The notes: a model not told the origin generated them from the letters alone. Positions 11,924-58,249 are shown, counted from the first letter of the whole stretch. The stretch: 59,953 nt of DNA, filler included, from Dimargaris cristalligena (GCA_003614675.1; 5 parts of 5 records of this genome joined end to end with filler, not necessarily neighbours in it), one strand, 5' to 3'. Made by a program: numbers and translations.

Positions 11924-12023
11924 NNNNNNNNNNNNNNNNNNNNNNNNNNNNNNNNNNNNNNNNNNNNTTAATTAATTAANNNNNNNNNNNNNNNNNNNNN
12001 NNNNNNNNNNNNNNNNNNNNNNN
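11924..12023. other. Artificial contig-joining spacer (N44-TTAATTAATTAA-N44)
   Basis: The same 100-nt spacer, with a stop in all six frames, occurs four times; flanking genes are cut mid-CDS. Confidence 0.98.
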
Positions 12024-23937: not shown

Positions 23938-24037
23938 NNNNNNNNNNNNNNNNNNNNNNNNNNNNNNNNNNNNNNNNNNNNTTAATTAATTAANNNNNNN
24001 NNNNNNNNNNNNNNNNNNNNNNNNNNNNNNNNNNNNN
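23938..24037. other. Artificial contig-joining spacer
   Basis: N44-TTAATTAATTAA-N44. Confidence 0.98.
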
Positions 24038-34456: not shown

Positions 34457-35950
34457 AAACCCTAAAATTTGTGCCCGAAATATTTCCTGTTGTTCTCTCT
34501 TTTCTTCCCTTTTCTTTTTGCGGAAGTCGACCTCTCTAATTCAAAAATAAAAACGGGTCCTTTCGCCCGTCTTGATAAGCAGGGGGCCGTTTTTCAACCT
34601 TCTTTAGCAGCTCTTCCCTATGCGAATGTTATTTTCACCAATTGGATGGTCTTCGTTTTATTCTGAATTAATTATCATCTCGCCTCAAATCTAGGCAAAC
34701 ACACAAAGAATACGGTTAACCGAGCTATACCATGAAAAATCAGTGTGGTGAGTCGACTTTACTAGTTACCAATAAAGGTTTATCATTTATTCTATCCATA
34801 GAAGATATTTGGGCTGAATTGCGTCTAATTATTACTATATCTAATTAGGGGAGAGTATGTAGTAAAAGGATGTGGCACCAGAATGGCCCGTCTCATTAGA
34901 CCTCTATTGGGTTTATTATGCAGGATAATTGGGGCTATTGTGACTAGGCCTACGACTACCCGTTTGGTTGGAACCGCTGGCCACTTGCTTTGCTGAATTA
35001 GGCGACTTTATAATCCCCTTCAACCGGCCGCCCCGTTGCCGCTATGAAAACACAAAACCCTACTTTGATTTCGTGAGTTACTTTCTATCGCTTCATCCCT
35101 TGATCTTTGATAGCAACGGTCCTTCTTTTTCCCCCTAAGATAATTGTATCGTCATTACCACCTGTTCACACCTCTTATCCACACTAAAATGATTGGAGGA
35201 TCACGCATGGCCCACCTTTTTGAATCAACAGGAAGCGGCGCATGTAATTATTCAGCGAAATCTGACAATGTACTATATATAGGGGCAGTTGACATCTCCT
35301 TCAGGTGCCTCCCGCTCTCCAGCACCACTAATTAAATTGATGATTAGAAGATAATTTTCCTGTATTGACTTATTCATAGGGCTTTATTAAGATATTGCTG
35401 ATATACGGCCTATCCAATCGCCAGATTGATCAAACCACTGATCTCAAGTTAAACCCAGTGCGGAATATTGGTATGGGAGAGGTTCAATCAGGCCGTATAA
35501 CAGAAAATCTGTCGGTTGATGTAAATATTTCTAGATAAAATTGAACCTCCCGCGTAGTTTGCCCTACACGTATCATTTATAGCATACATCTGGTCCGAAT
35601 TTCACCCATATATTTATAAAATAAATAAAATATGGTTCACTGATATTTAATAAAATCATCATGTTAAGGACGTGTTACTGCAGCGGTCGTAAAAACAATG
35701 TTGATATTCACTTTCCTGCATCAGCAACCAGTCAAAGTAAAATGAAGAAATACAAAATTAAATAAAAATTGCATAGCTAATGGAGCTTGTAGACCAAGGT
35801 CAAGGGTAGAGATACATTTAATAACTACGGCCTACTTTTTAAACATTTTGTAAGAGACTTACAAGTCAGAATCGACCGAATATGCCCACTTGTCAGTATT
35901 GTACAGTGGCAATAATTAGATTAGGGCACCGGTAAATAAGAAAATGCAAG

Positions 35951-36050
35951 NNNNNNNNNNNNNNNNNNNNNNNNNNNNNNNNNNNNNNNNNNNNTTAATT
36001 AATTAANNNNNNNNNNNNNNNNNNNNNNNNNNNNNNNNNNNNNNNNNNNN
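35951..36050. other. Artificial contig-joining spacer
   Basis: N44-TTAATTAATTAA-N44. Confidence 0.98.
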
Positions 36051-39000
36051 AGGCTGCGATGTTCAACCATGACGCCCTTGGGGAGGCCGGTGGATCCTGA
36101 GGTGAACACAACGTAGGCCAGCTCTGTCGGTTGAATGGGGTGGAGGGAGGCAGCAGTGGTGGTAGACTTGATGCTATCGATAAGGTCGTCAATGGTGATG
36201 GCTTCGCGCCATTCGGTGTTTGTTCCTGACGCATTCGCCATACATGTGCACCCGGCTGTTTCGACAATGTATTTTTGACGGGCAATTGGATGCTTGCTAT
36301 CCACTGGCACATAAACAGCACCGACACCCCAAACAGCCAGCATACACATGACTGTATCAGGATGATTAGACACAATAACACCAACTTTGTCGCGTGGCTG
36401 AACATTAGCACGTCGGAGACGCTCAACCATTCCCAAAACTCGCCAGGTTAGCTGGGTATAGGTGTGAGTATCGTTGCCAATTTCAGTCGCCACTCGATTT
36501 GGATATTTTTGAGCCATACCAAAGAATAGATCCAAAAGGCTAAGGCATGGATTTTCCTCTGTAATTGGATTAGGAGACCCAAGTGCAAATTTATCCAGGA
36601 TGAGGGTGGCCTCAGTTGGACACACCAGTGATGTCGTGGACCATGGCTGGTGGGCAACCACCACCGAATGAGCATAGGCCAGAAAATTGTGAAGTAGGCG
36701 GTTTGCCGTATCAACGTTGAAGAGGCTCTGGTTGAATCGCAACTGACACATGGGTACAAGGTCATGAAAGTCAACAACCAGCTGTAAATCGTAAGGGAAC
36801 ATCGTCCAGGGCGATAGGGACCTGGTACAGTGTAATGTAGAATTGTCCCGGGGAACAATGTGATGGTGGAATACGACTGATACATGAGACAGGCCGGAAA
36901 TTCTGTGCTGTCCTTCGGGAGATAAGTGGGTAACAATATCATCCGTCGAAGGTAAAACGTGGGGCCGGGAGTCTCTAAGCTGGCGGATCAGTCGTTCGGC
37001 TAGTTCGGAGAAATCTAACGGCAGAATTCCATTCACTCGAAGCGGCCCTCTCAATTCTGACAAAGTCGCCATGGCCGCCGAAGTATCACTATTACCAACA
37101 TCCGGGCCGTTTATGTCCATAATCAAATCAGTCTGTCCTGTCAGGCGCAACATGAATGTTGAAAATAGAGACGACCAGATCCCATATTCCTTAACCGACT
37201 CATTCGAAGCCTGTACCTGAATAGCTTCAAACAATCGCCCCTCAACTTCGGTTTCGGCCAAGTCACAGAGGAAAGAGGGCAAAAGAGGGCGAGGTCGGTC
37301 AGTCGGAAGAGACAGTTCAACCGGTGGATTCTGAAGAAGAGTGGCCCAATAGTCGAAATCTACTTTAGTAGGCTCACCAGTACTGCAAACTCTCGTGAAT
37401 TGGACATCGGGTAAACTGCGTGAATGCCCAACCAATTGATTGGTGAGAGCATGTACGAATTTTTCAAATTCGCTGGTGGATCCGAGGATTTCGTGGACAC
37501 GAATTACAATCACTGAAGAGTTGTTGTAGACTGTGTCCGTCGGCCACTGATACAAGTCGAGTTGAACCAGCACGCCTTGATTCAAATCAAATTGAGGTGC
37601 ATGAACGTCGAACTGGTCACCATTGAATACTTGAGAGCTGGGAAGCTGGTGCTCAGTTACTCTAATTGACACTCGTGGTAAAACGTGGCAGGTAAGTACA
37701 CCTCGAACTGATAGAAACCGACAACGAAGGGATTCGAATATGATAGTTAGGTGATCGATAGTCTGCTGAACCTCCTCCAACTGAAGCAGGATCTTGGAAA
37801 TAATCGTACAATGGTGGTGGAAAGCTGATGAAGGATTGCCCAATCGACTGAGGGACCAGACTCGTTGTTGATGGCTAGTGGTCGACTTTTGAGTATGCAG
37901 AAGCGATGCCTTCAGAGGGGGAATATAGGTATCATTGACGGTGAAATCGGGAGACTCCTCAACCTCGGCTTGCTTAATAATATCCTGGATGATGGAGGCC
38001 AAAGTACGAATCTCAGTGTGTTTAACCAATTCTCCCAAACCGACAGCAATACCGAATTTCTGGTAAATGCGATACTGAAGTAGGTCTAGTTGGGCCAAGG
38101 GAATCCTTGATGTGGATATTAGAGGTGCAGTATCATTACTGCAAGCTAAAGTATGATTGGCGGATGCGTATAGCTCATTCACCACTACTGTCAACCACCA
38201 TTCGGAATCTGACAGGGACTGGGCTGAACGGGTTGGAAGCGTGACTAGATATGCTATTGCAAAGTGCGGGAGAAGTTGGTCATTAAGGTCAGTCACATGT
38301 GGGAACGCATTGGTTGAAATGATCTCATCGGGCACGAGAGCGGCTGGAATTGTAGGTGGAGTCATAGTAGTTTTTATCCCAATTAGGTCCGCTTCGGAGG
38401 CATTGGAAACCAGAACCACTAGCCGATCATGAGATAAGACTAAGTATCGTGGGGATTGGGCACCAGCTTTAGATAATGCTCGCACCAACGTACCAAGATG
38501 GACCTGCCGATGCTTAATGGCCACTCGCTGGCTGGCCGGGCCCAGAATATGGACAATGTCAGCAGCATCACGGTAGCCAAGTACGGATTGCTTTGAAGAA
38601 GCAGGGTAATAGGGAAACGAAGTGCCCAGGAATGCCAGTCGACCAACTACACCAGGGGGAGAAGGATGGCCATGTTTACCCAACACATCCAAAGCATAGC
38701 CACCATTGAGTGGTTTGTCCATAGCAGGTAGTGAGCGGGAAGCCAGTTGCTTTGGTGTGATACGCCGATGCCCATGGAAGATGGATTCGATAAAAGCCAG
38801 GCAGGTATCGGTTGATTTGTCCAAACTTTCGACATGAGGCCAGGTGTCACCTTTTAAGTCAAAGAGAATTAGACGGTCACCTAAAACCGACCCATGCGAC
38901 AGAGAATCGCCGGCGATAACGTGGCAAGGTGAAGATTCGCTACTCTTATGTATAGGTGAATCAGGGGCCGAGATAGTGGCCTGTGAGGTTAGGCACGACA

Positions 39001-42000
39001 GAGTAAACCATATGCTCTGTGGGCTATCCAGGTCCAAGGAACTATCCAAAATATACTGTCTCTTGCTATCAACGAAGGTCCGAGTTGAGGCAAGGGTTTG
39101 TTGGATGCATGGACTATCAATAATAGAGACCGCACAATCAGTTGAATCGCTACGGGATGCAAACGCCAAGGAGGGATCTTGCAAGCCACTGGGCTGCGTC
39201 AATAGACAAGTGGCTCGCGGTTCACTTATTATATGATCAAACGAGTCCGGTATGCCAACCGCTGCAATACCATTATCCAGATAAGGGCATACATGTTCTA
39301 TGTCAGTAGATGTTAGCCACACTATCTGCGCACCAACGGCCTTAGAACACGCTGTTAATTGTGTGATGGTAAAGGGTGATGCCAGAGGTAGAAATTGTGC
39401 ACCCATCTTGATTGCGCTCACTAGGCAGACCAGCAAATGTTCGACACTATCTACTACAGCCACGACTGTTGGGTGGGGGGCTAAGCCAAACTGGCTGGAT
39501 TGAACAGCGAGGGAATGAGCCAATTGGTCAAGCTGACTGTATGACAGGCTATGGGCTTTTGAGTCAAGGGCTAGGTGATCTGAGCTGTCCAGCAAAGAGT
39601 TGTTCCAGATGTCATTTAGCAGCGGGGGCGCTGGAGTGGTCGTGGATCTTCTCGATTCTTGGTCAACGTGAAGGCGGCTGTTTGACGGAGGGCTTGCAAG
39701 TGCGAGTTGGTCCATAGGTGTGTTTATATCCGCCACTAGAATCCACGTAAGAACAAACTGGACCATATCAACTATCTGACTGACGGATTCTTCAGAATAG
39801 ATGGATGTATCATAGAATACTTTGGCCTTGATACCGTTAGAGCTTTCAATAAAGTCAATGGCCAGCGGGTACTCTGTAAACTCATCTGTACGTAGGTCAG
39901 ATAAAACCAGGCTGTGTGTCGGATCAGCTACAAGTTCCGGGAAATTTTCGAACCCCATAATGGTTTGGAATAGTGGTCCGGAATGGTCGGTGGAAGCCCA
40001 CTTAGTAATGTCAGTTAGGACTGAGTGTTCAAACGGGATCATGGCTACCTGGCCTTGGTGGAGGGTCTGCAACCAGTCCGCAATTAATTGATGATCCAGA
40101 CGCACCCGGGAGGGTAAAGTATTCGTACAGGGACCAATCGTCCGTTCGATCCCGGGCAGGCCTAGGTTGCGGCCGGACAGAGTCACGCCAAACACCACTT
40201 CATCCTGGTCGAGTAGAGATCCCAGAACTAGGGCATAGGCGGCTCGGAATAAAGTAGCCAGAGTGACCCCGAACATCTGCGAGCATTGGGTTAACTGGGT
40301 CTTGGAAAGATTAATCCCGGTTAGATAAGTCGCCCAGCCTGGTAATCCAATATAGCCGGGGGAGAGTAAAGGGGCAGGGGTCTTGGGTGCATCTTTTAGA
40401 TAGCTGCCCCAGAAAGCCTGGGCTGAATCCGAATTGAGCTCGCTGACGCACTGAATAATGGACGAAAAAGGGACTGACGGAGAACTCGCTTCCAGGTTGG
40501 GATGGTGATAGGCTTCCATCCACGCCTGGAATAAAAGAGGCAGCGACCACCCATCGCACAGAGAATGATGAAACGTAATAATAACATCATGCACTTGGTT
40601 ATCAACGGTAGGGAACACAAAATTGCGAATCATATGTTCTTGCAATGTAAAACCCCGCTGGCGGTTCTGTGCTAGGAATTCGTCGAGTGACTTTAAGGGT
40701 TGGTCGGAGACAGTCCAGGCGGTGGGGCACGACCGAAGAACCGCCTGGATATACCCTCGGGACTGCTTCGATGACGACTCAAGAAATACAGTGCGCAGGG
40801 CGGTATTCTGCTGGGCAACCGCCTGCCAGGCCTGCAGCAGCCGATCAGCATTAAGCGGGCCGTTGAATTTGACAGTGAGTTGCACTAAATATGCGGAGGC
40901 GTCAGTGGATAATCCTGTTAACAAACCACCCTGGAGAGCAATGCAGGGCAACACATCCTCCACCTGATCTAGCGGAATATGACGGTGACAGAGATCGTCA
41001 ATAATCTCCTGGAATTCAGATGTGGAAGGTTGGAGGTGGGCAAAGTCATATCGCGTGAGAAGTGGCTCCACACTAATGGACTGCGATTGGTTCATTTCAC
41101 TGGCGAGCTGGACGAGGTTCTGACGCCATTGGGCCATGATTTCATCGACGATGCTTCGGCAATACACCAACGGATTGAACTCCATAATTAGACGAAGGCA
41201 GTCACCGACCACCGTAGGCATGGGATTGATGTCATAAATAACCTTGTCCTGGGGAGCAAAGTCGTGTAGACCGAAATAGTCGGACCACTCGATGGATAAC
41301 AAATCGTCGCTTAGATCTCCACCAGTATTGCTGAAACGGCCAAAATAGTTGAACTGGACGTCTAGGCTGGCCGGGGTCTTGGCCTCCAACTTGGCCCGCT
41401 CTTCCACTGAAACGCCAGGCATGTATTTCAATAAGGAATAGGGAAATCCCTTCATTGGGATTTGCTGCAAAGCCTCTTTGGTATGGCGCAACAGGTCCAG
41501 TAAGGGCTGGTGAGACTGAACCTGCAGAACGAGGGGGTAGAGAGCGGTAAACCAGCCTACGGTGCGGGAAATGTCTTGATCAGATAGCCATGGCTCACGG
41601 CCGTGCCCCTCCATGCAAAAAGTTACTTGGTCCAGTCCTATGGTAGTGGCGAAGGCGTGTGTGAAGGCGGCCAGAAGTAGATCGCGTGGAGTGACGCGTA
41701 GCTGCGCGGACAATTGGAACAATAGTGGGTATGTGGATTCAGAGTCGAACTCGAAAGATGTGGAGAGGCGGGCAGCCTGGGTACGGGTAGCATCCAATTC
41801 AGGCGGTGGAAGGCGGACCCGGATATCGGGAACGGGTTTATCTGAGTTTAACTGAGTGGGCCAGATATCGGCCGACAGAGTTGCTGCATAGTCGTCGAGC
41901 TGTGAGGCCCAGACTTGGAAAGGCAGTGATTTCGGCGGCAGTGAGGCGCCTCGGAGCAGGGTATTCAAGTCCTCAATTAGAATACGCCAGGCAATCAGGT

Positions 42001-44950
42001 CTACCAAGACGTGATGGATGGTGATGAATAGGCGGGGTTGGGACTTACTGTCCGGGTCATGGATCAGGGCAACAGCCAACACAGGGCCTGCAGTAAGGTT
42101 AAGGCTAGATTGAACCCGCAGAATAAAGCCGACATAGTTTTCGGAAGAAACCGTTTCTTCCAACACTAAGAAGTCGGCGGGCATGGCCCTGGCTGTAGGT
42201 ATCGCCTGGACCCACAACCAGCCATCATCACTTGGTTTGAATCGGGCCCGGAGAATGTCGTGGTGGTTGGCCAGGGCCACAAGGGCGTCGGAAATGGTCG
42301 TCAATGATAAACTGGCTTTGGGGTTTATATTCAACGTGAAGGACTGGTTAAAATGGTGGGGGTTACGAAGACCAATGGCACTGAACCAGCGCTGAATAGG
42401 CGTTAAAGTCACCGCACCCTGGACTTGTTCCTGGTAGGCAGCGTTGACATTGGCCAGATGGCTAGAGAACTTTTCAGTGTGCTGGGCCAACTGTCGGAGT
42501 TCGGGGTACTGGTAGATCAATGGCACGGCTAATTGATATCCAATCTGTCGACCCTTAGACACAAGTAAAATGGCTGAAATAGAGTCACCGCCGATTCGGA
42601 AAAAGTGGTCGGTAGTGCTGATACGGTCAGGGTCTAAGTGTAGGACCTGGGCCCAGATCTGGCAAAGGTCACGTTCGGAATCAGATTGGGGAGCGGTAAC
42701 CTTGGACATCGTAGAGTCGGTACTAGATGGGCCACCCAGTAAATGGTCAATTGGGGGTAAAGACTTGCGGTCCAATTTACCGCTGACCGTCGTTTTAAAC
42801 TCCGTGACAAGCACTACTAGGCCAGGTACCATCTGCTTGGACAACCGCTTCTTCAGATAGCTCAGCAGGGCCAGCTGGTCCAAGTCCGTAGGGCTAGCGT
42901 AAAGTACTAGGGTATCATGTTTTACTGATGCTACGCATTGCTTGAGACCTGGAAAGTGGCCACTAACCGACTCAATTTCTTCGAGCTCGATGCGATACCC
43001 ACGCAGCTTGATCTGGTTATCGATCCGACCTAAGAAATCGATTGTGCCATTAGCCAACCAACGGGCCTGGTCACCGGTCCGGTACACCCGACCTGGTCCA
43101 TAGGGATTGGAAATAAACTTGGCTTGGGTAAGTTCAGGAAGATTTTGGTAGCCTCGGGCTAAACCAATCCCGCCAATGAGAAGCTCGCCGGGAACTCCGA
43201 CAGGTACCAATTGAAGCTGGTCATCTACAATGAAACAAAAAGTATTGCGTATCGGCTTCCCAATAGTAATGTCATGGTCGGAACCAATTTCAACTGAATG
43301 GCTATAGATTGTCGCCTCGGAGGGTCCATAATAGTTCACCATTCGGCACCGATGTGCCCAATTTGTCTGAATTTCGGGGGTGATGGGTTCGCCGGCCATT
43401 CCAATCAGCTCCAGATTGGGGTAGTCATCAGGATCGAGGCGGGCCACAAACGAGGGAACAAATGACCCGCTAGTGAGGGTACGCATATCGTCCAGGATAT
43501 TATCACCCGGGACTATCAGTGTACCTCCATGGCATAGGGTACGTAAGGTATCGACCAAGAAGGCATCAAAGACTACGGACATACCCTGGATAGTACGTTT
43601 ACCCGGACCGAAGTCCTCCGCTAGGTATGGGTCCGCAACCAGACTTGCTACCCCACCGTGTTCCACCAACACCCCTTTAGGCTGACCTGTAGAGCCTGAC
43701 GTGTAGATCATATAGGCCAGGTCGTTTGAGTTTGACGGATTTGGGGTAAATGGTGGGACATCGAGGTTCTGGGAGTGGTGAATATAAGAGTCCATGACCA
43801 GAGTAGTTGCAGTCGACTCGGCCGGCAGATAGTCATAAGTAGAGCTGGTGGCGATAGCTAAGAGTGCATCACTGTCCTTGAGGATATACCGAATTCGTTC
43901 AATAGGATAATCGGGGTCAATGGGGACATAAGCGGCGCCAGACTTGAATATCGCCAGCATGGTGATGTTGAAGGCAGCGGACTTAGGTATAAAGATGGCA
44001 AATCGCACCTCAGGTCGGGCCCCATATTCTTCCACCAACACACGGGCGAGATTGGAAGTGACCTGGTCCAATTGGGAGTAGGTCCATTCATCGGGGCCGT
44101 ATGCCAAAGCAAGATGATGGGGGTAGCGCTGGGCACATTGGCTGAACAGGCAATGGACGGGTAGACCAACTGGTTGGACAGTCTCATTCATACGAGAGAA
44201 CTCCATCAGGCGAGTTCGTTCATTGTCGCTGACCCAGGGAATATCACGCACCAGGACAGGTTGGTCTCGGCCCAGGGCCTCCATTACGCCTGACAAAATA
44301 GTACCCAGTTGGAGGGCAAACTCGGCTACGGCCGGTCCATGATACTGAGTCCGCGGATAGGTGACTGTAATTCGGACCTGATCATGATGCTGCTCGCAGC
44401 TAACCATGAGTCGGGCGGCTGTCGCAATCAAAATCGCGGCAGTGGACGGGTCAGCGTCGGACTCGCTGAGTTGCCCAACATAATCGGCTGGGAGGAATGT
44501 CCGATGATTTTTGCTTGGCCAAGGGTTGTCGACGTGAAGAATGACCTCAGCCACATGACTAGTGGAACCAGGTGAATTAACAGGCTTAACCTCCTGCATG
44601 ATGGAAACATCAAGAGGGAGATCCGGCTTTACTTGGGAGAGAACCAAGTTGAGTTGATGACCGGCTGCTTCGCCTTCCCCGATTGGACCTGTCCAGTGAG
44701 CGAAAGCGACGCCAGGTTGGCGGTGGTAGCGACTCAGGAGAAGTGCTAGGGCCATCTGGCAGGGTGGAGTGGGGTCAAGCTGCCCGCCTCCTACCGAGGC
44801 CGGAAGAGGAAGGGGGTGCAACCAACTGGCATAGCCCGTCCCATATTGGTGGGGTTTGCCAAGAGGCAGGTCGGCCGCGGGCTGATAATCAATGGGAACG
44901 GCAGGCATACACACGCGTGTGTTATCGTTGGGGTCTACTGGAGAATACAT
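36051..44950 (-). CDS. Non-ribosomal peptide synthetase, intronless, 3' truncated; architecture partial-C, A, T, E, C, degenerate A-T-C, A(partial)
   Basis: A1: LAYMIYTSGSTGQPKGV, YGPSEAT, YRTGD, RIDNQIKLRGYRIELEEIE, SGKLDRK. T: FFRIGGDSI. E: PIQRWF, HHVLVDLIAWRILIEDL, MEGHGRE, RTVGWFTALYP, FNYFGRF. C: HHSLCDGWS. Final A begins LAYVVFTSGSTGLPKGV. Confidence 0.96.
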
Positions 44951-45696
44951 GGTGTAATGACGTAAATTGGGGTGGTAGGGAAATACGAAATAAATAAATA
45001 AGGTAAATTAGGGGCCAAACTGGACAGCTAATGAATCAGGCGGCTGATCAATACTAGGATATGCTTATTGGGTGACACCTAAATTGAGATCGCTGATGAT
45101 GCTCTGCACTTTATATACCTATGCTATTACTATCTCCACAGAAGAAAAGCTGCTCGCCGCCCACCGCTCAACAGGGAGTCGAGTAGTTAAGGGCTTCACC
45201 AAATGATGTGTTTTTGGTGGGAGTGGTATGTATTGGCCATCGCTTACCGAAACGCCCATATCAATGCAGATACTAAGCAAGAGATATTATTTTATAATAG
45301 TTGGTTGAAGTTGATTAGGCACAGCAACTAGTCACGCGTACAATTCCGCATCATATCCCCCCTGTGGACAACAAAAAATCATTATAATAGGCTGCCTAGT
45401 AGTTCGAAATATCGACCTACCAAGGTGGCATATTTTAAATCAGTGGTCCTAATGTCGTGGATACAGGTATACTGTATCTGTGACTCATACCCGGTGCTAG
45501 TCTGCATGAGGTTTTCCCATGAACCCCTCGAAGTGGTAGACTATAGGTCTGTTTTGGTTCTATCTGTACTGGTGATGAATAAAATCTGTTCAAAAAGGGA
45601 TATCCATGTTATTTCATAGTGCCTCTATGTTTCCGCCCGACACACTGACTACCTATTATTAATTAAGCCAAGCAGTATACTACTACCAACTGTCTG

Positions 45697-47952: not shown

Positions 47953-48052
47953 NNNNNNNNNNNNNNNNNNNNNNNNNNNNNNNNNNNNNNNNNNNNTTAA
48001 TTAATTAANNNNNNNNNNNNNNNNNNNNNNNNNNNNNNNNNNNNNNNNNNNN
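47953..48052. other. Artificial contig-joining spacer
   Basis: N44-TTAATTAATTAA-N44. Confidence 0.98.
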
Positions 48053-49675: not shown

Positions 49676-50873
49676 GCTGGATTGAGAATTGTTTTGTATA
49701 CACGATACTAGGGTTAGGCGGACTGAAGTGAGATCGCAGTTGCGCTTTCTAAGGAATTGGCAGATGAGAGCTACTGCCAAAGACGGTCGGATATTTTTGA
49801 ATAGAAACGGGGCTAGTGTATAATGACGGAATATATATATATATACTAATAAATAGATAAATCCAAAGCAACCGAAGAGCAAGGAAAGGACCGGGGGAAC
49901 AGTAAGTATATAGGGAGGGCATTGATTTCTTCTATCTCTTTCTCTCTCCCTTTTGCCCAAGCTGTGGAGCATTCAATGCCACAGGGCCAATAATAGGCCA
50001 GATGCAAGAGATTGGCCTGCTATTGCTCTTGCTGCTTCCAACCATCCCACAGGAGGAGGAAATCCAATACTCTGGTATAGTAAATAATATGGGTGAAATT
50101 CTTCAGCTCGGTTGTGTAAGGGTTTAACTGTTATGCGTATGGGAAAATCGGTGGGACGTTTATTTTCAACCAGTAGTATTTGCCTCATCAAATGGATTTT
50201 TCGTTAAACAGCCTGGTTGAACTGCTCCCATATTCAACGATGGTGACTAATTAACTAGTAAAAAAACGCAGGGCCACGCGCTTATTTTCAACCATTGGCC
50301 AGGAAGGAGGAAAGTCTGGGGGTTCAACCAAAATGGCTCTCTCTTCTCCTCCGCACAATAGGACCAGTTGGCAGTCGACCCACGTGACATCTAAAATCCC
50401 AGTAGTGTCTGTAATTGCATTCAATAAACGTCGTACTATTATTATCACCAATACTAGCCACTATATTATGATCTCAATTAGGGATTGCAATTGAACCCGA
50501 ACAGTTGGTTCACCATGCCCTTGGTTCACCGTCACCATAGTTAAGCTCCAACATATTGTTGTGACGGGCAATGCATAAGGATTACTGTGTAAGATTTTTT
50601 TATCAGGCCAGTGGTTGATAGCGTAGATATGGGATGGTGAGGGGAAGGATATGCAATTGAAGTCAGGTTTCAATAGGGGTAAATAAGAAGATGTCAGAGT
50701 GAAAATAGTGCATCGGGAAGCCGGTTATATTACAATAGTGGGGTGGTAGGTGATGATCTGAGTTACCAGGGGTCGGTTACAAAGCGCCCGTTGTTGGATC
50801 CAGAGGGTGGTGGTAATACTTCGGTAGCAATATTGCATGCACGCTTTGGAGTGAGGGATGTATCTATTACTTT

Positions 50874-52071
50874 TTACTCTGTTCTTTTATTAGCGCCTAG
50901 AACAGCCAGCTGGTCGGCCCCATCATTACCCGGGTCGCCACTATGTCCCCGCACTTTGGTAAGTTTAACTGGACCGGCCCGGACTTGTATCTTTTCGAGG
51001 ATGCCCTGGATTATATCGACGTTCACTACATCGCCCCCCGTGGCAGTTTTCCAGTTATTCTTCTTCCACCCGTGATTCCACTTGCGTATACAATCGATGG
51101 AGTACTGACTGTCGGTGCAAATCTCAAGGGGCGTATGTGGGCTAAACATCTCAAGAGCGCACAGGATGGCCGCGAGTTCGGCACGCTGGTTGGTTTGATT
51201 GCCGTCCCATAAAGGTTCACTGATATTGCGGGGATCGTTTGGACCAAAATAAACGCCAATTCCGGCAATAGCCCCTGGACGGCCATTATTGATGGCTGCA
51301 CCGTCAGTGTAAACCCGCTCGTACGATGCGGGCTTAACCGGTGGAACTGACTTGGGCTTAACCGGCAGAGCTGGCTTGGGCTTAACCGGTGGAACTAGCT
51401 TGGGGGCAATCAAATCAGAGTCGGAATAGATCAATTTACCGCAATAAACACACTTGGTGGTTTCGATTGTGACTGATTGCGGTATGTCCGGCAGCGGCCC
51501 CTGGGTCGAGGTTTCCTGGATGAAGCGCTCGGCTTCGAACCGGGAAGTGAACTTTTTATGCACGGCACCCGAGTATTCGGAGACTTGTTGTTGGCAAATG
51601 GCCCTGTAAGAGAACAACATCAATCAATAAATGGGCGCAGGAGTCAGGAAATATGGTGGCCGTGTTAAGCAAAAAGCCGAGAGCACCGTCAATGGGAGGG
51701 CTTATCTGAATTATAGTCCCCAGCAGTAGTAGTTGCATGTATGCCTAGAATCCATTGAGTTGGGAAAACCCCTCAACCATCTTGCCCCGGGAGTTTGCGC
51801 TTGCTAACACCGGGTGGGGGATTCTAAGGAATGCACCAGGAGGGACGGCAGTCTGTACTAACCAGTTGGTGTAAATGCCGGGGTTGTGACCTTTGCGAAC
51901 GGCGTAGTACGCCAGCTTAGGGGCGGTAAGGGGTTGGGTATTTCGATGTGTGGCTCGTTGAGTACGGCGGGACTTGGCCATGCCAGCTCTTCCTTGGCCT
52001 GACAATAAACGGCCGAATGCAGAGAAGGGTTGGGCTAGAAGTAAAGTCCTTGAACGGACGTGAAACGGCAT
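50874..52071 (-). CDS. RNH1: RNase H1 paralogue A (~312 aa; exons 51863-52071, 50874-51603), with putative mitochondrial presequence
   Basis: Hybrid-binding domain YYAVRKGHNPGIYTNW|AICQQQVSEYSGAVHKKF and catalytic domain YTDGA, TNQRAEL, TDSQY, GHSGDPGNDGADQLA. Phase-2 intron GTTAGT...CAG. Confidence 0.92.
51330..51401. repeat. 3 x 24-nt imperfect tandem repeat inside RNase H1-A (PKLVPPVK/PKPALPVK/PKSVPPVK)
   Basis: gggcttaaccgg recurs at 51330, 51354 and 51378. Confidence 0.9.
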
Positions 52072-52951
52072 AGTATGTGCAGTTGTTTTTCCAATATTGA
52101 TAAAAATTAAATAAAACACCGAAAGTAAAATAGTTGATGGAAAAATAAGTGGAAAATGAAGAAATGGTTGTAATATAGGAGAGGGCTACCACCACAGCCC
52201 CTTTTTACCTTTACCTATGGTTAGGCATGCTATGAGGAGGGTGGGATTGTTTGGTGCCTGTCTGTGTACTGTTACGTCTGAGAATGAAAAATGCACCCGA
52301 TGGCCATCAATACTATTTGAAATTAGAGGCCATTTACTTTTTAGTCTCTCAGGAGCCTGCTCCCCCTGCAGATGGGGCCCCCTAATTATTTAATGCTTTA
52401 TTGTGAGTAATCGTTATTGCCCAATGTGTAAAACCAGTGGTCGCGATTCAATTATCCGGTTTTCAATCCCGTCACCGTTTGGGCCTACATTAAAGGCCAA
52501 TCCAAGAGGATCGTTAGGATCTTTTATAAACCTGGATCATGCTGGTTGGCCTGTCGTATGGTTTCTTCACGACCAAGCTGACATGGCACGCATTCTCGTT
52601 CGTATATGGGGTAGCAGACCCGGGGATATTCTGCTAACTACTGGGTGGTTTCGACCCCCGAGCAAGTTGGTCGGCGCAAACACCAACCAACGGTATGGAT
52701 TGCCTGGGGTTGTCAGGAAGGTGTTATTAATTTAAAGCTACGCAGCATGTACTGTGCCAAGGCACTCGCTAAACCAGACATACTCCAGGAAGTCGGCGCC
52801 TGGATGGGGGATAGTCAGGGGCGAATTAATTGGACGTGTCTACATACCCGTTACAATACATGTGGCAATGCTGATCGATTCTTTGGCAATGGGGTATTGT
52901 GGAATTAATTTAATATAAGGTTTATTTCATCTTTCTTGGTATGGTTGGGTG

Positions 52952-54074
52952 TTATATCCGGCCTTTTCTAGCACCTTCCACCGCGAGACGATCGGCCATA
53001 TCATTGCCCGGGTCGCCGCTGTGACCGCGGACTTTGGTGAAGGAAACCGATCCCCCACGGGCTTGGATATTTTGCCGGATGCCTTGAATAACATCGGCAT
53101 TTACGACCTTGGCCCCGGTGGACGTTTTCCAACCATTCTTGTCCCATGCCTTGCACCATTTGGTGATGCAGTCAATGGAGTATTGACTATCCGTGCATAT
53201 TTCAAGGGGTATAGATGGATCGGAAGTTTCCAGTGCCCGCTTGATGGCGGTAAGTTCGGCGCATTGGTTGGTCTGATTAGCATGGAGCAGGGGCTCACTT
53301 ACATTACGAGGGTCGTTGGGACCGTAATAGACCCCGACTCCGGCCCGGGCCCCTTGGCGACCGTTCTTGGAAGCGGCCCCGTCGGTGTAGACCCGTTGCC
53401 GCTCAGTGAGACGCGGTACCAAGTGGCGTAGGGCGAAGCTAGGGACCACCTCCACTCGATTGGGCACGGGCTGGCTCATCTTAAGCTGCTTAATGGGCCT
53501 AATACTAGATGGTCCTGAGACAGTAGTATCACTCGGGTCAAAGGAGCTTGGCAGGCTACGTTTAGCTGATGTTGGCCTTGTGCTCGCTGGGGCTGTGATA
53601 GAAGGCCCAAGTCGAGGTTGGCTCGGCTCACTATACCGCGAGGACCCAGCCGAGACATGCGTGGATGGGGGCGATGCTGACTCATAGAACTTGGTCGTTT
53701 GTGAAAAGCGTTCAGCCTCAGCTAGCGTACCAAATTTCTTATAGGTGGCCCCCGCGAAACCAGTCACTTGCTGTTGGCAGCTAGGCCTAGGTGGTAGGTA
53801 GGTAGATGATATAGGTTCCAAGGCCAACGAGGGTTACAGAAGGGGTAAGCGAATAGCTCGGGGTGGGTTAGAAATATCTCCGACACGGGCTTGTATAAGT
53901 TAAAGGGCTTGGGGGCATTCTTATTGCAGGTGGGCCTGACCCCAGGTAGTAGTGGGTTTCGGAGGGGGTCAGCAGCTAACACATGGTATAATCGAGGTTT
54001 GTTCGTTGGGCAGGTACTAACCAGTCGGGATAGACTCCAGGCCTACGGCCATTGCGAACGGCGTAATAGGGCAT
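52952..54074 (-). CDS. RNH1: RNase H1 paralogue B (~295 aa; exons 54022-54074, 52952-53786)
   Basis: MPYYAVRNGRRPGVYPDW|PSCQQQVTGFAGATYKKF; YTDGA, TNQCAEL, TDSQY, GHSGDPGNDMADRLA. Intron at the same phase-2 Trp codon as A. Confidence 0.92.
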
Positions 54075-54960
54075 GTGGATGTGGGGTGAGGGCTTCAACA
54101 GGTTGGGCGGATTGCGGGCCAGTTGAATGGGAAAGTTGGAGAAGGGGTGGTGATAATGAGCTTAAAGGAAGCCCATGTGTGGAGAATGGGAAACATAAAA
54201 GTTTGAGTTGAAGAGCAGTCGGCGGATTTATTTAGAAAAGGGAGCTTTAGTGGATGGGGTAAGGCTATGGCAGGAGAAATGAGGATATAATTGTAAAGCA
54301 GAGGCCAATTTCCGGGTACCCACCAATATCAACACCATCAAAATCACGCACACTTTCGTCGATTTTATAAGGGAAAATAAATAATAGCGTGCAGAATGCG
54401 GAGCGGCGTAGTTAAACGAACCGACAATGTGTGTGAATAGGCGGAGGTACACACTCACTCCCTTCTCTCATAACCCTTCGACCTTCACGCTGTGTAGAAC
54501 CCCCCCTCCCAATTTATCGATTTTCCTGTCCTGATTAAAGGCTCCCGCCCAAATGAAACCGATCTAAACTGCTTCAACGATGATCTGCTGGTAAAGTTGT
54601 TTGGATTATAACAGGCATTTAGACAGGGACTCGTACTAAGGAGGCTGTATTTGGAATTATGGCGAGTGCAAGCCAACAGCAGAATAGGATCCACGATAAA
54701 ATGCAGTTGTATTAATGGAGATGAGGGGGTTGGTTCATTATTCAGTCAAATTATACCGATCCCGCATCAAAAGGATCCATTAGCCCAGTATATATATATA
54801 TATAATAGCTAGAGCGGTTGATGGTCGCCAATACTGGTAAAGGTTACCACCAGCTAGTGATTTACTCGAGTCAGGAAGCAGCCGTCGCCTCGTAGTATTC
54901 GTATTGATACAGGTTGACTTCGGATTGAAAGTTAGGCAATGCGAACGAAAGGCAACCATT

Positions 54961-56353
54961 CTAAACTATGGTCGTCGTTTTTTTGGCACCTCTAACTGCT
55001 AATCGGTCCGCCTTATTGTTGCCAGGGTCACCACTGTGGGCGCGCACTTTCCTGAATATGACCGATCCTGGCCGAATAGCCAGTACTTGGCGAATATCTT
55101 GAATGACGTCCGCATTCACTACTTTGCTACCAGTGGCCGTTTTCCAGGCGGTGAACTCCCAATGGTAACCCCACTTGGTGATGCAGTTGATGGAATACTG
55201 GCTGTCGGTGCAGATTTCCAGGGGCGTGTTCAGGTCGGCTTTCTCAATGGCACGCTTGATGGCCATGAGCTCAGCACGTTGGTTGGTTTGTCGACCGTCC
55301 AGTAGAGTTTCGCTAACGTTGCGGGGATCCCCAGGCCCGAAATAGACCCCCAGCCCAGCACGGGCATTGCGTCGGCCATTATTGGTGGCGGCACCATCGG
55401 TATAAACCCGCAGGCGTTCGGTGAACCCTGGTGCAGGGTAGTTAGAAGCATAGGTAGGCTCAGGGGGTACATATTTTGGCCTGGGGCGGCTCGATCGTTG
55501 GCGTTTGGCTGACGGTTCATCGCAAGGGGGTATCGGGGCATTGTAGCTAGAATCGGGACAGTCCATGCTACTGCGCTTAGCCGGCCCACTGGCATGAGCC
55601 GTTGGGACGGCGGCATTAAGCCATGGCAAGGCAGGGACACTCCGCCGTTCCAGAGTAGGGGTGGCTAGAGCTAGTGGGTGCATTGGGCCATTAGTTGGCA
55701 TCGCATCTGGATATTGACACCTTACTCCTTCAGCGCGGTCCCAATCGGAATTAGAGAGGGTTAACCATTCCGGCGGAAGTCCAAGAATATCGGACGGTAC
55801 CGGGGCAGATTGATTAGAGCTGAGGTAGCCCGTACCACAGCATTTAGCACACTCGAGGCGGGTCAGCGCTGGTGTAGTATGATTCGGCGCGGAGGAGCTT
55901 GGCTCACTACGCTGAATAGGTAGAGTGAATGTAAAATCAGCGGATTGAGGCATGGCCAGCGATGGTGCGGGAGACGGAACCAGTTGGGAGAAAATTTCGG
56001 CCTCGCCCAGGGTTTTGAATTTTTTATAAATAGCGCCTGAGAACCCGGTGACTTGGTTCTGGCATTGGGGCCTATGGGCATAGTAAAAGCCAAGATAATG
56101 GTGGCCCGTTGGAAGGAATTGGAGGACAGAGGATATATTAAGGAAATCATACCTAGTTCTTTGGACCAAACCTTCAACTAAAGCCCAACCAAATTGGCTG
56201 TTTAAGCTGCATATAGCTCCCTAGTGTACTACAGCGTGGAAGGGAAAGGCCAAAGGGAATCAAAGGAAGTCCAGTTAAGGCACATGTAGTAGGTACTGAC
56301 CAGTCACGGTAAATGCCGGGGGTGCGGCCTTTACGAACGGCGTAATAGCTCAT
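54961..56353 (-). CDS. RNH1: RNase H1 paralogue C (~387 aa; exons 56301-56353, 54961-56071), extended linker
   Basis: MSYYAVRKGRTPGIYRDW|PQCQNQVTGFSGAIYKKF; YTDGA, TNQRAEL, TDSQY, AHSGDPGNNKADRLA. Intron GTCAGT...TAG at the same position. Confidence 0.92.
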
Positions 56354-58249
56354 TTCGGGGGTGGCTGGGGTACTTCAAACCGCCCAGAGAGATCTTCACT
56401 TGGCCGCGGTTCCTTCGACAAGCCAGGCGGGGTTAAATAGTATGAAAGCCAACTTAGTGAGTAGAGGGAATGAAGGAAAGGTAGGTGAAACGCAGCTGAC
56501 TGGTGGCCAATGCAGAGCAATATGAATACCATAGCAACTTAAAGATGGGCTGAAGGGGAAAATTAAATAAGGGTTGAACAAGGGGAGGGTTTAGAGAATT
56601 TTTAAACCCCGTTGCAATCGTCCGGCTCTAAATTCACTCCAACCATTTCAAGCATATGAGGAGTACTCACCATGGGCTTTGGGACTAAATCGTGGGTAGA
56701 GGTAGATAGGCCAAAAAAGACATCCTATCCTATTTGCCCAGGGATTTGGTGGCTGAATCCCTTCTACATTGGGCCTGAGTATGGGCATGCCGCCTCCACA
56801 GGCGAAAGCAGAAGGGATAGTATATATCAGGTTAAAAGACAACAGCTGCAAGCATTGATGGGTTTTATTGGAAGTAAGCGGAGACGAGGTCGATGACTTG
56901 GCCCAGTAGCAAAAAAGACATCAATGAAATATAAATAGTGGTTATCAGTTGAACAAAAATATAAACATTATAGCCAATTGGTAAAGCCAATCAGGCATCA
57001 GCCATGGCAAATAGTCGCCTAAAAGTATTGATGAAACTTGCTCCCATTATGAAACGTCCGATTGGGTTTTCCACTGAAAGATAGGCCATTATCGCCGTTG
57101 GCGGTTGGGACACCAATCCTGCTATAATTAGTCCCTGCTTCCCAAATAGAAAACAGGGTTGGTTTCAAATATTCATACACAAAAAATGAAAAATATATAT
57201 CTGTAACTAAATAATACTAACACGTATGGCCGCTGGACATTGGTAATCTGATGCCAGTCCCGAATATGACCGATAGAGTACCAGGCTCCTCCTCCTGCTT
57301 GTCTGTATCTGCGAATAACCCGGCTGTGATCTTTTCCAACCCAATTCTTATCACTGTGACAGTATAGGTGATCAGTGGCGCACAACAATAAGAACTGATA
57401 CATGTCTTAAATGAATAAAACATGCAATATTTCTATATAACAATGCCTATATATACACATTAGACCATGGCATACAACTCGTATTTCCTCTTCATGCAAC
57501 TTTAACAATTTATATATGGCTGGTAGTTAGTAGGGCAGCAATATAATTTACAGGATAAGCAAGAAAAACCACTATTGATTTAGCAATCTTGTTGTTTATG
57601 GAGGGTGCAGTATAAGGTTCACATAGTATCTATATGGTTTAGGATAGAAAAAATGGAGCTATGCATGGCTAATTCATTGACAATCAGATGAAAGCGCTGA
57701 ACATCGGTGATCTCTGGTCCCACCCAGCCAGGATGATACAGCTAATTCACGGGGGACCAAACAGCATCACGTTGCTAGCCGATCCCTGCCAAGGTAAAAT
57801 GCATCTATTTGTATGTATATTAATTGTACAACTCTCTTATTATATCTAAATAGTTCTAGGAGTTTATGCGCTTGGCATTTCTTTTGTATGTGAAAATTTC
57901 TACTGCTGTACTATAGTAACGACAAGCTGGCATATGAATGAAATAGTCACAGTTACTATTGATGAATACGAAGGGGGGCAAACGAAATGATGGTATATAC
58001 CAAAGGTGCAAGAAATATGATATCAAAGAGTGTTTGATATAATATGAGACGAAAATACCATTTTAACAAATATGTGGCTGTGATATATTTTTTTACCTGG
58101 CATTCATATGTTTTCATTAGAGAGGCTGTTTTGGCAGCTGGGATTGGCCTTACCAAGAAGGTCTGACTAAGAGGGTGATCTTTGCTTACTATATTAAACA
58201 TCACCCAAAGTAAGTACCCTAGCCAAAATGTGATTCAAGAAAATCGGAA

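Follow-up and report, generated by a model that had tools for sequence, protein, structure and literature searches.

We analysed a stretch of DNA of 59,953 bases from Dimargaris cristalligena, referred to below as the window, and found that positions 50874-56353 of its minus strand carry three head-to-tail, two-exon RNase H1 genes, designated A, B and C. It is probable that this array arose by an old tandem triplication of a canonical RNase H1 in the Dimargaris lineage, and that its copies divide their work by cellular compartment while remaining partially redundant. The order Dimargaritales, to which this mycoparasite belongs, is described in PMC9866270 as the earliest-diverging lineage of the Kickxellomycotina.

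The gene models were established by reading the minus strand of positions 50700-56600 for start codons and splice sites. Gene A (50874-52071) is composed of exon 1 (52071-51863; 209 nt) and exon 2 (51603-50874), separated by an intron of 259 nt (51862-51604; GTTAGT..CAG), and encodes 312 amino acids (aa) followed by a stop codon. Gene B (52952-54074) has a shorter exon 1 (54074-54022; 53 nt), an intron of 235 nt (54021-53787) and an exon 2 at 53786-52952, which together specify a protein of 295 aa. The exon 1 of gene C (54961-56353) is also 53 nt long (56353-56301), and is followed by an intron of 229 nt (56300-56072) and exon 2 (56071-54961), giving a protein of 387 aa. All three introns begin with GT(T/C)AGT and end with (C/T)AG. 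Since exon 1 of each gene ends with TG and exon 2 opens with G, a Trp codon is cut at phase 2 in every copy. The spliced frames each contain one terminal stop and are otherwise open. The copies are spaced about 2.0-2.3 kb apart, and a tBLASTN search with the three proteins across the window revealed no fourth copy or remnant.

The encoded proteins share the same order of parts: a hybrid-binding domain (HBD), a linker and a full RNase H1 catalytic domain, preceded in the product of gene A by an extra basic N-terminal extension. The linkers differ in length and composition (78 aa and Pro/Lys-rich in A, 113 aa and Ser/Thr/Pro-rich in B, 203 aa in C). The catalytic domains match Pfam PF00075 (RNase_H) with 117.6 (A), 119.9 (B) and 115.3 bits (C), with E-values of 1e-33 to 1e-34 overall (6e-34 being given for A), against a curated cut-off of 25.8 bits. 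The exon 2-encoded parts of the HBD (PF01693, Cauli_VI; cut-off 21 bits) score 28.5, 33.7 and 31.6 bits in A, B and C, respectively, and the part encoded by exon 1 of gene A also matches (23.5 bits). The corresponding exon 1 parts of B and C, MPYYAVRNGRRPGVYPDW and MSYYAVRKGRTPGIYRDW, were recognised by reading the sequence.

Five motifs are common to the three products: YTDG, AEL, CTDSQY, HSGDPGN and AD-x-LA. These align with residues D145, E186, D210, H264 and D274 of human RNase H1, with which the gene B product was aligned directly. In an alignment of 20 sequences (A, B, C and 17 homologues) the catalytic residues D225, E267, D289, H345 and D355 (gene C exon 2 numbering) are invariant, as are the Trp columns W300, W304 and W309. 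About 145 residues of the catalytic domain of gene B align with human RNase H1 (2qk9, 6vrd; E 2e-32), the register being kept at YTDG, AE, TDS, GHSG and AD-RLA. No gaps interrupt the alignment from the third carboxylate to the His loop. This part includes the human 'ITNWVQGWKKNGWKTS' region, which we take to be the basic protrusion (handle), a feature of cellular RNase H1/HI that retroviral RNase H lacks.

At 52 exon 2 columns in which at least 16 of the 17 homologues agree, A and C deviate once each and B three times (F to Y, G to H, and R to C in QTNQRAEL), and none of the three copies looks degenerate. The last of the gene B changes (codon 53262-53264) places a Cys beside the catalytic Glu, in QTNQCAEL, where A, C and 17/17 other homologues have Arg; it is the same in both strains compared. 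Fungal RNase H1 makes up the great majority of the matches listed in the protein searches (the best 120 of 267 and the best 120 of 177). The three genes are classified as encoding eukaryotic (type 1) RNase H1 enzymes with predicted cleavage activity. An earlier reading of this DNA (the sequence-only reading) had assigned them to cellular RNase H1 rather than to retroelement RNase H, and the HBD, the protrusion region and the placement of the genes among fungal RNase H1 in phylogenetic trees bear this out. The coordinates, motifs, intron phase and catalytic set that it gave were all confirmed by the gene models, Pfam matches and alignment, and its description of the genes as intact holds for the window sequence, with its open spliced frames and full domains.

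The array was also compared with public data. The product of gene B is 100% identical to H4R33_004129 of D. cristalligena (P0002) and that of gene C is identical at 321/325 positions to H4R33_004130 (P0003); both are filed at NCBI as 'hypothetical protein', under neighbouring locus tags on one 34,658-base contig of another assembly. Logan contigs were available from four DNA runs (X1, X2, X4 and X5), the last of which comes from another study. A single contig of X2 covers positions 50359-57000 with 0 substitutions relative to the window, and positions 50194-57000 lie on one contig of X5 (8250 nt) that differs from the window by 28 substitutions and a single 1-nt gap. The array stretch is represented by two overlapping contigs in X1 and by four in X4.

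Phylogenetic analysis placed A, B and C in one clade inside fungal cellular RNase H1. In a tree of 58 rows this clade received a support of 99 (SH-aLRT, the Shimodaira-Hasegawa-like approximate likelihood ratio test) and stood apart from the sequences of Coemansia, Spiromyces and Syncephalis; in a more careful tree of 27 rows its support was 100/99, again separate from other fungal RNase H1. The branch lengths in the latter tree are 0.76 (A), 0.31 (B, the shortest) and 0.51 (C) substitutions per site. In this tree the clade is a trifurcation, and a grouping of B with C was neither supported nor rejected (p-AU, the P value of the approximately unbiased test, 0.45). This grouping is favoured by identity in the HBD (73% vs 56-58%) and in the linker (44% vs 26-28%). 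No closer relative of A or B than their own paralogs, for example from other Dimargaritales, was present among the matches listed, and for this reason the duplications are not dated within the order.

The copies share 57-62% protein identity over conserved columns and 66-68% DNA identity in the catalytic domain. Within this domain the proportion of synonymous differences (pS, Nei-Gojobori) is 0.72-0.80, i.e. saturated, and that of nonsynonymous differences (pN) is 0.18-0.22. Identity amounts to 35-46% at third codon positions and to 73-82% at first and second positions. A BLASTN comparison of the introns and spacers between the copies revealed no similarity except for one marginal match of 39 nt (E 0.006). 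Saturation at synonymous sites together with a pN of about 0.2 shows that every copy has been under long-term purifying selection, which excludes both a recent duplication and pseudogenes of long standing. To judge from these sequences, the triplication is old, lineage-specific and kept under purifying selection. This agrees with the sequence-only reading, which had described a retained gene family with strongly diverged linkers, introns and intergenic DNA; the non-coding DNA was here found to be unalignable.

The copies also differ at the N-terminus. The product of gene A alone carries 54 residues ahead of the YYAVR motif of the HBD (51910-52071, minus strand), a candidate mitochondrial presequence by its composition (10 K+R, 0 D+E, 9 S+T and 14 A+L). 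A second in-frame Met (codon 31; ATG at 51981) lies 23 residues ahead of the HBD. In the products of B and C, YYAVR is preceded by 2 residues, and their open frames contain no in-frame Met further upstream. According to two papers, human RNase H1 is built in the order mitochondrial targeting sequence (MTS)-HBD-connection-catalytic domain (PMC6588129), with a predicted MTS of residues 1-26 (PMC6182146). Gene A shows the same four-part order as human RNASEH1, including the basic N-terminal extension and the second Met before the HBD. An extension of this kind with an internal Met was also found in several annotated fungal models among the 172 homologues examined, for example P0023, P0060, P0068, P0166, P0191 and P0219.

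The most probable reading of these features is the following division of labour. The products of all three genes would bind RNA:DNA hybrids through the N-terminal HBD, and would cut the RNA strand with a D-E-D-D (+His) two-metal active site, like the human and yeast RNase H1. Copy A would serve the mitochondria and, by alternative initiation at the second start, perhaps also the nucleus. Copies B and C, which lack a presequence, would be nuclear or cytosolic enzymes removing R-loops and primers; B is the most conserved of the three, and C, with its long and presumably disordered linker, would be at least partly redundant and possibly dispensable. In this scheme we infer, from the genes, the expression of the copies as well as their activity and targeting. 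A division by compartment had already been proposed in the sequence-only reading; it is made plausible by the finding that only A has a presequence-like N-terminus, and the targeting itself is deduced from composition.

Gene C differs from its neighbours in its linker and in its variation between strains. The 203-aa linker contains a basic cluster (KRQRSSRPRPK) and is predicted to be disordered: in the AlphaFold2 model the catalytic domain has a pLDDT (predicted local distance difference test) score of >90, and the linker scores <50 and shows no secondary structure. The presence of a hidden domain was considered and rejected, as Pfam returned nothing for the linker and the ESM Atlas no usable match, in keeping with the structureless model. 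At position 56026 (minus strand) codon 33 of gene C is TAT (Tyr) in the window and a TAA stop in the X5 contig (A>T on the plus strand; one contig, depth 183). Tyr33 is the aromatic residue of the 'YKKF' motif of the HBD. The public model H4R33_004130 starts from an internal Met and has no HBD because the annotated strain carries the TAA at 56026. In the X5 strain, gene C is either a young pseudogene or the gene of an HBD-less enzyme. A second variant, in an A7 run at 54978 (minus strand), lacks one base in X2, X4 and X5, the base being present in X1 and the window; it affects only residues after the catalytic domain (KKTTTIV-stop versus KKRRP-stop or KKLRP-stop).

The substitutions between X5 and the window are distributed unevenly: 1 in gene A (T311A), 0 in gene B, 7 in the B-C spacer, 8 in the exons of C, 3 in its intron and 9 in the 647 nt upstream of C. 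The exonic changes in gene C comprise four missense (I70T, P174L, T175M and S354P), one nonsense and three that are silent in the frame of the window. With 8 changes in 1164 nt, the exons are not far from the density of the adjoining non-coding DNA (19 in about 1760 nt), and the changes between these two strains thus look nearly neutral, as if gene C were under relaxed constraint. The sequence-only reading had named redundancy of the extra copies as an argument against their specialisation. Redundancy is indicated at least for gene C, by its nonsense codon in the HBD and its four missense against three silent changes. We also observed that the divergence shifts sharply near position 54100: the ~3900 nt on the left contain 1 substitution, the ~2900 nt on the right 27. 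This points to a boundary of haplotypes or of recombination that lies within the array and separates gene B from gene C.

Several observations weigh against a division of labour by compartment. The assignment of an MTS to gene A is one of composition, the peak of the helical hydrophobic moment lies in the second half of the extension, and the presequence would be absent altogether if transcription started downstream of the first ATG. Most annotated RNase H1 models of Coemansia also have no presequence, so its absence from B and C is by itself no proof of their exclusion from mitochondria. Gene B and nearly all of gene A are situated in a near-invariant segment of 3.9 kb and gene C in a stretch of ~1% divergence; because the whole 3.9-kb segment is near-invariant, the contrast in polymorphism between A/B and C is partly regional, and it derives from one strain comparison with small counts. 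Moreover, the copy number of three is valid for the window, and extra copies may be present elsewhere in the genome.

An alternative that we regard as unlikely, while giving it real weight, is plain redundancy or dosage: the three copies would share one task and the same compartments, the extension of A would carry no functional signal, and the genes would persist since extra activity is mildly useful or loss is slow. The identity of the domains and catalytic residues in all three copies is in line with this, as are the nonsense mutation tolerated by copy C in one strain and the independent RNase H1 duplications of other fungi, for which no specialisation is known. Fully redundant copies would, however, not be expected to keep open frames and a pN of about 0.2 over the time that synonymous sites need to become saturated, and redundancy does not account for the strong divergence of the linkers and N-termini or for a basic extension found only in A.

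RNase H enzymes act on retroelement intermediates, and B and C might have been recruited against hybrids of retrotransposons, of mycoviruses or of host nucleic acids encountered during mycoparasitism. The long, fast-evolving and lineage-specific linker of gene C, with no look-alike in the ESM Atlas, could be seen in this light. We nevertheless consider a role in defence or retroelement control very improbable, as the evolution of the domains has been conservative rather than diversifying over the long term, the linker adds no predicted fold, and copy C is truncated in one strain. Moreover, neither a reverse transcriptase, an integrase or a long terminal repeat (LTR) nor a defence-type gene adjoins the array. 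The retroelement or genome-defence role put forward in the sequence-only reading thus found no support; the genes beside the array encode a probable leucyl-tRNA synthetase (LeuRS), a non-ribosomal peptide synthetase (NRPS), a CCT chaperonin and a glycine-cleavage P protein.

There is a similarly slight chance that the array is a specialised hybrid-surveillance module of this mycoparasite, in which A would perform housekeeping functions (mitochondrial and nuclear), and B and C would be tuned by their linkers to particular targets, which could be replication intermediates of retroelements or mycoviruses, or R-loops at particular loci. If this were true, the strain-specific turnover of C would be that of a gene in conflict with a parasite, and the Arg-to-Cys change of B in the substrate-contact motif QTNQRAEL would be part of the retuning. 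Finally, it is scarcely credible that the array is an artefact, since single contigs from two studies, one of them independent, span all of it, B and C bear adjacent locus tags in another assembly, the divergence between the copies (57-62% protein identity, 66-68% identity in catalytic-domain DNA, unalignable non-coding DNA) is not that of an assembly duplication, which the sequence-only reading had rightly discounted, and a misreading of retroelement RNase H domains is excluded by the HBD, the gap-free protrusion region and the position among fungal RNase H1.

Inspection of the surroundings of the array showed that gene A is followed downstream by a gene for a class-I aminoacyl-tRNA synthetase, probably LeuRS. 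Further neighbours encode an NRPS of ~3000 aa, a CCT chaperonin subunit, a membrane transporter-like protein and a glycine-cleavage P protein, so that only housekeeping or NRPS domains were found beside the array. From the LeuRS gene to the end of the window there is no other open reading frame of at least 130 aa, overlapping frames aside, and tRNA and Rfam scans around the array returned nothing. The NRPS gene (36053-45007, minus strand) is one open frame with three condensation and three AMP-binding matches and a carrier domain. It fits the unusual richness of D. cristalligena in predicted secondary-metabolite genes that is reported in PMC9866270. Pairs of 44-base N-runs, which are masked sequence, recur about every 12 kb (11924-12023, 23938-24037, 35951-36050 and 47953-48052); the LeuRS and NRPS models are incomplete because one such pair interrupts each frame.

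Between the LeuRS gene and gene A (50086-50234) lies an element of 149 nt with imperfect terminal inverted repeats of 16 nt (AATATGGGTGAAATTC / GAACTGCTCCCATATT; 81% complementary). Its summed k-mer depth exceeds that of its flanks 100 to 10,000 times in all four DNA runs, and it is represented by dozens of short contigs, 90-95% alike, which end at 50102 and 50233/50234. A weak copy is present at 35472-35616 (69% over 152 nt). The element looks like a very high-copy repeat of the MITE (miniature inverted-repeat transposable element) type.

Duplication of RNase H1 is not confined to Dimargaris. The 27-row tree contains independent fungal duplications, a pair from Podospora (support 99/96) and a Logan pair, P0013/P0038 (97/94), and Coemansia guatemalensis has two distinct RNase H1 loci (P0004 and P0160). 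The statement of the sequence-only reading that the enzyme is normally single-copy in fungi is therefore too strong. Two further candidates, P0090/P0208 of Boeremia exigua and P0015/P0030 of Colletotrichum tofieldiae, were rejected, each being one gene modelled twice. The sisters P0013 and P0038 are both reported on a contig of 5611 bases; they may form another tandem pair, of independent origin, in a fungus resembling the Kickxellales.

The tandem arrangement itself seems rare. Relatives are encoded at 80 metagenome loci, with a median length of 6071 nt and 29 reaching 8 kb or more, and none of these loci contains a second RNase H match; a tandem array is thus not the usual arrangement, and an array of three genes was not encountered elsewhere. 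Our searches of the literature on RNase H1 paralogs, duplication, fungal family expansion and D. cristalligena brought up no paper on RNase H1 arrays in fungi, and the terms 'RNase H' and 'ribonuclease H' have 0 occurrences in PMC9866270, supplements left out.

The array is a fairly ordinary duplication of canonical enzymes, of a kind recurrent in fungi, and involves no new kind of biology; as a new instance of a known event, RNase H1 duplication and subfunctionalisation, it is material for an annotation or comparative note. It allows the public annotation to be corrected, in which B and C are hypothetical proteins and C is modelled without its HBD. It also provides a natural trio, comprised of (i) a copy with a candidate presequence, (ii) a compact, conserved copy and (iii) a copy whose linker is long and predicted to be disordered and of which a natural allele lacks the HBD, in which the separate contributions of N-terminus, HBD and linker to the working of RNase H1 could be studied.

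Among the matches listed, the single-copy RNase H1 of Coemansia, Spiromyces and Syncephalis belong to the same family and have the same domain order, with 38-45% full-length identity. The aromatic-K-K motif of the HBD of human RNASEH1 is present in A, B and C; the human linker is unrelated in sequence to theirs. In humans one gene serves both compartments, whereas here there are three genes, only A having the extension, and the targeting is deduced. The closest parallel was found in plants. As described in 10.1101/662080, the Arabidopsis paralogs RNH1A, RNH1B and RNH1C are split among nucleus, mitochondria and plastids, and independent duplications of plant RNase H1 gave rise to nuclear and organellar proteins, some of them dispensable. 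What the sequence-only reading had called an undescribed system is thus a paralog family of a known enzyme, with the same pattern on record in plants.

In both cases a lineage-specific duplication of an HBD-plus-RNase H1 gene was followed by N-terminal differences that set, or in Dimargaris would set, the compartment, and some copies are, or in Dimargaris may be, dispensable. The array described here differs in being an independent fungal duplication, in its tight head-to-tail arrangement, in the absence of a plastid, and in the apparent sharing of one compartment by two of its three members. With these differences, it would be the fungal counterpart of the plant RNase H1 paralogs that share out the genomes of the cell.

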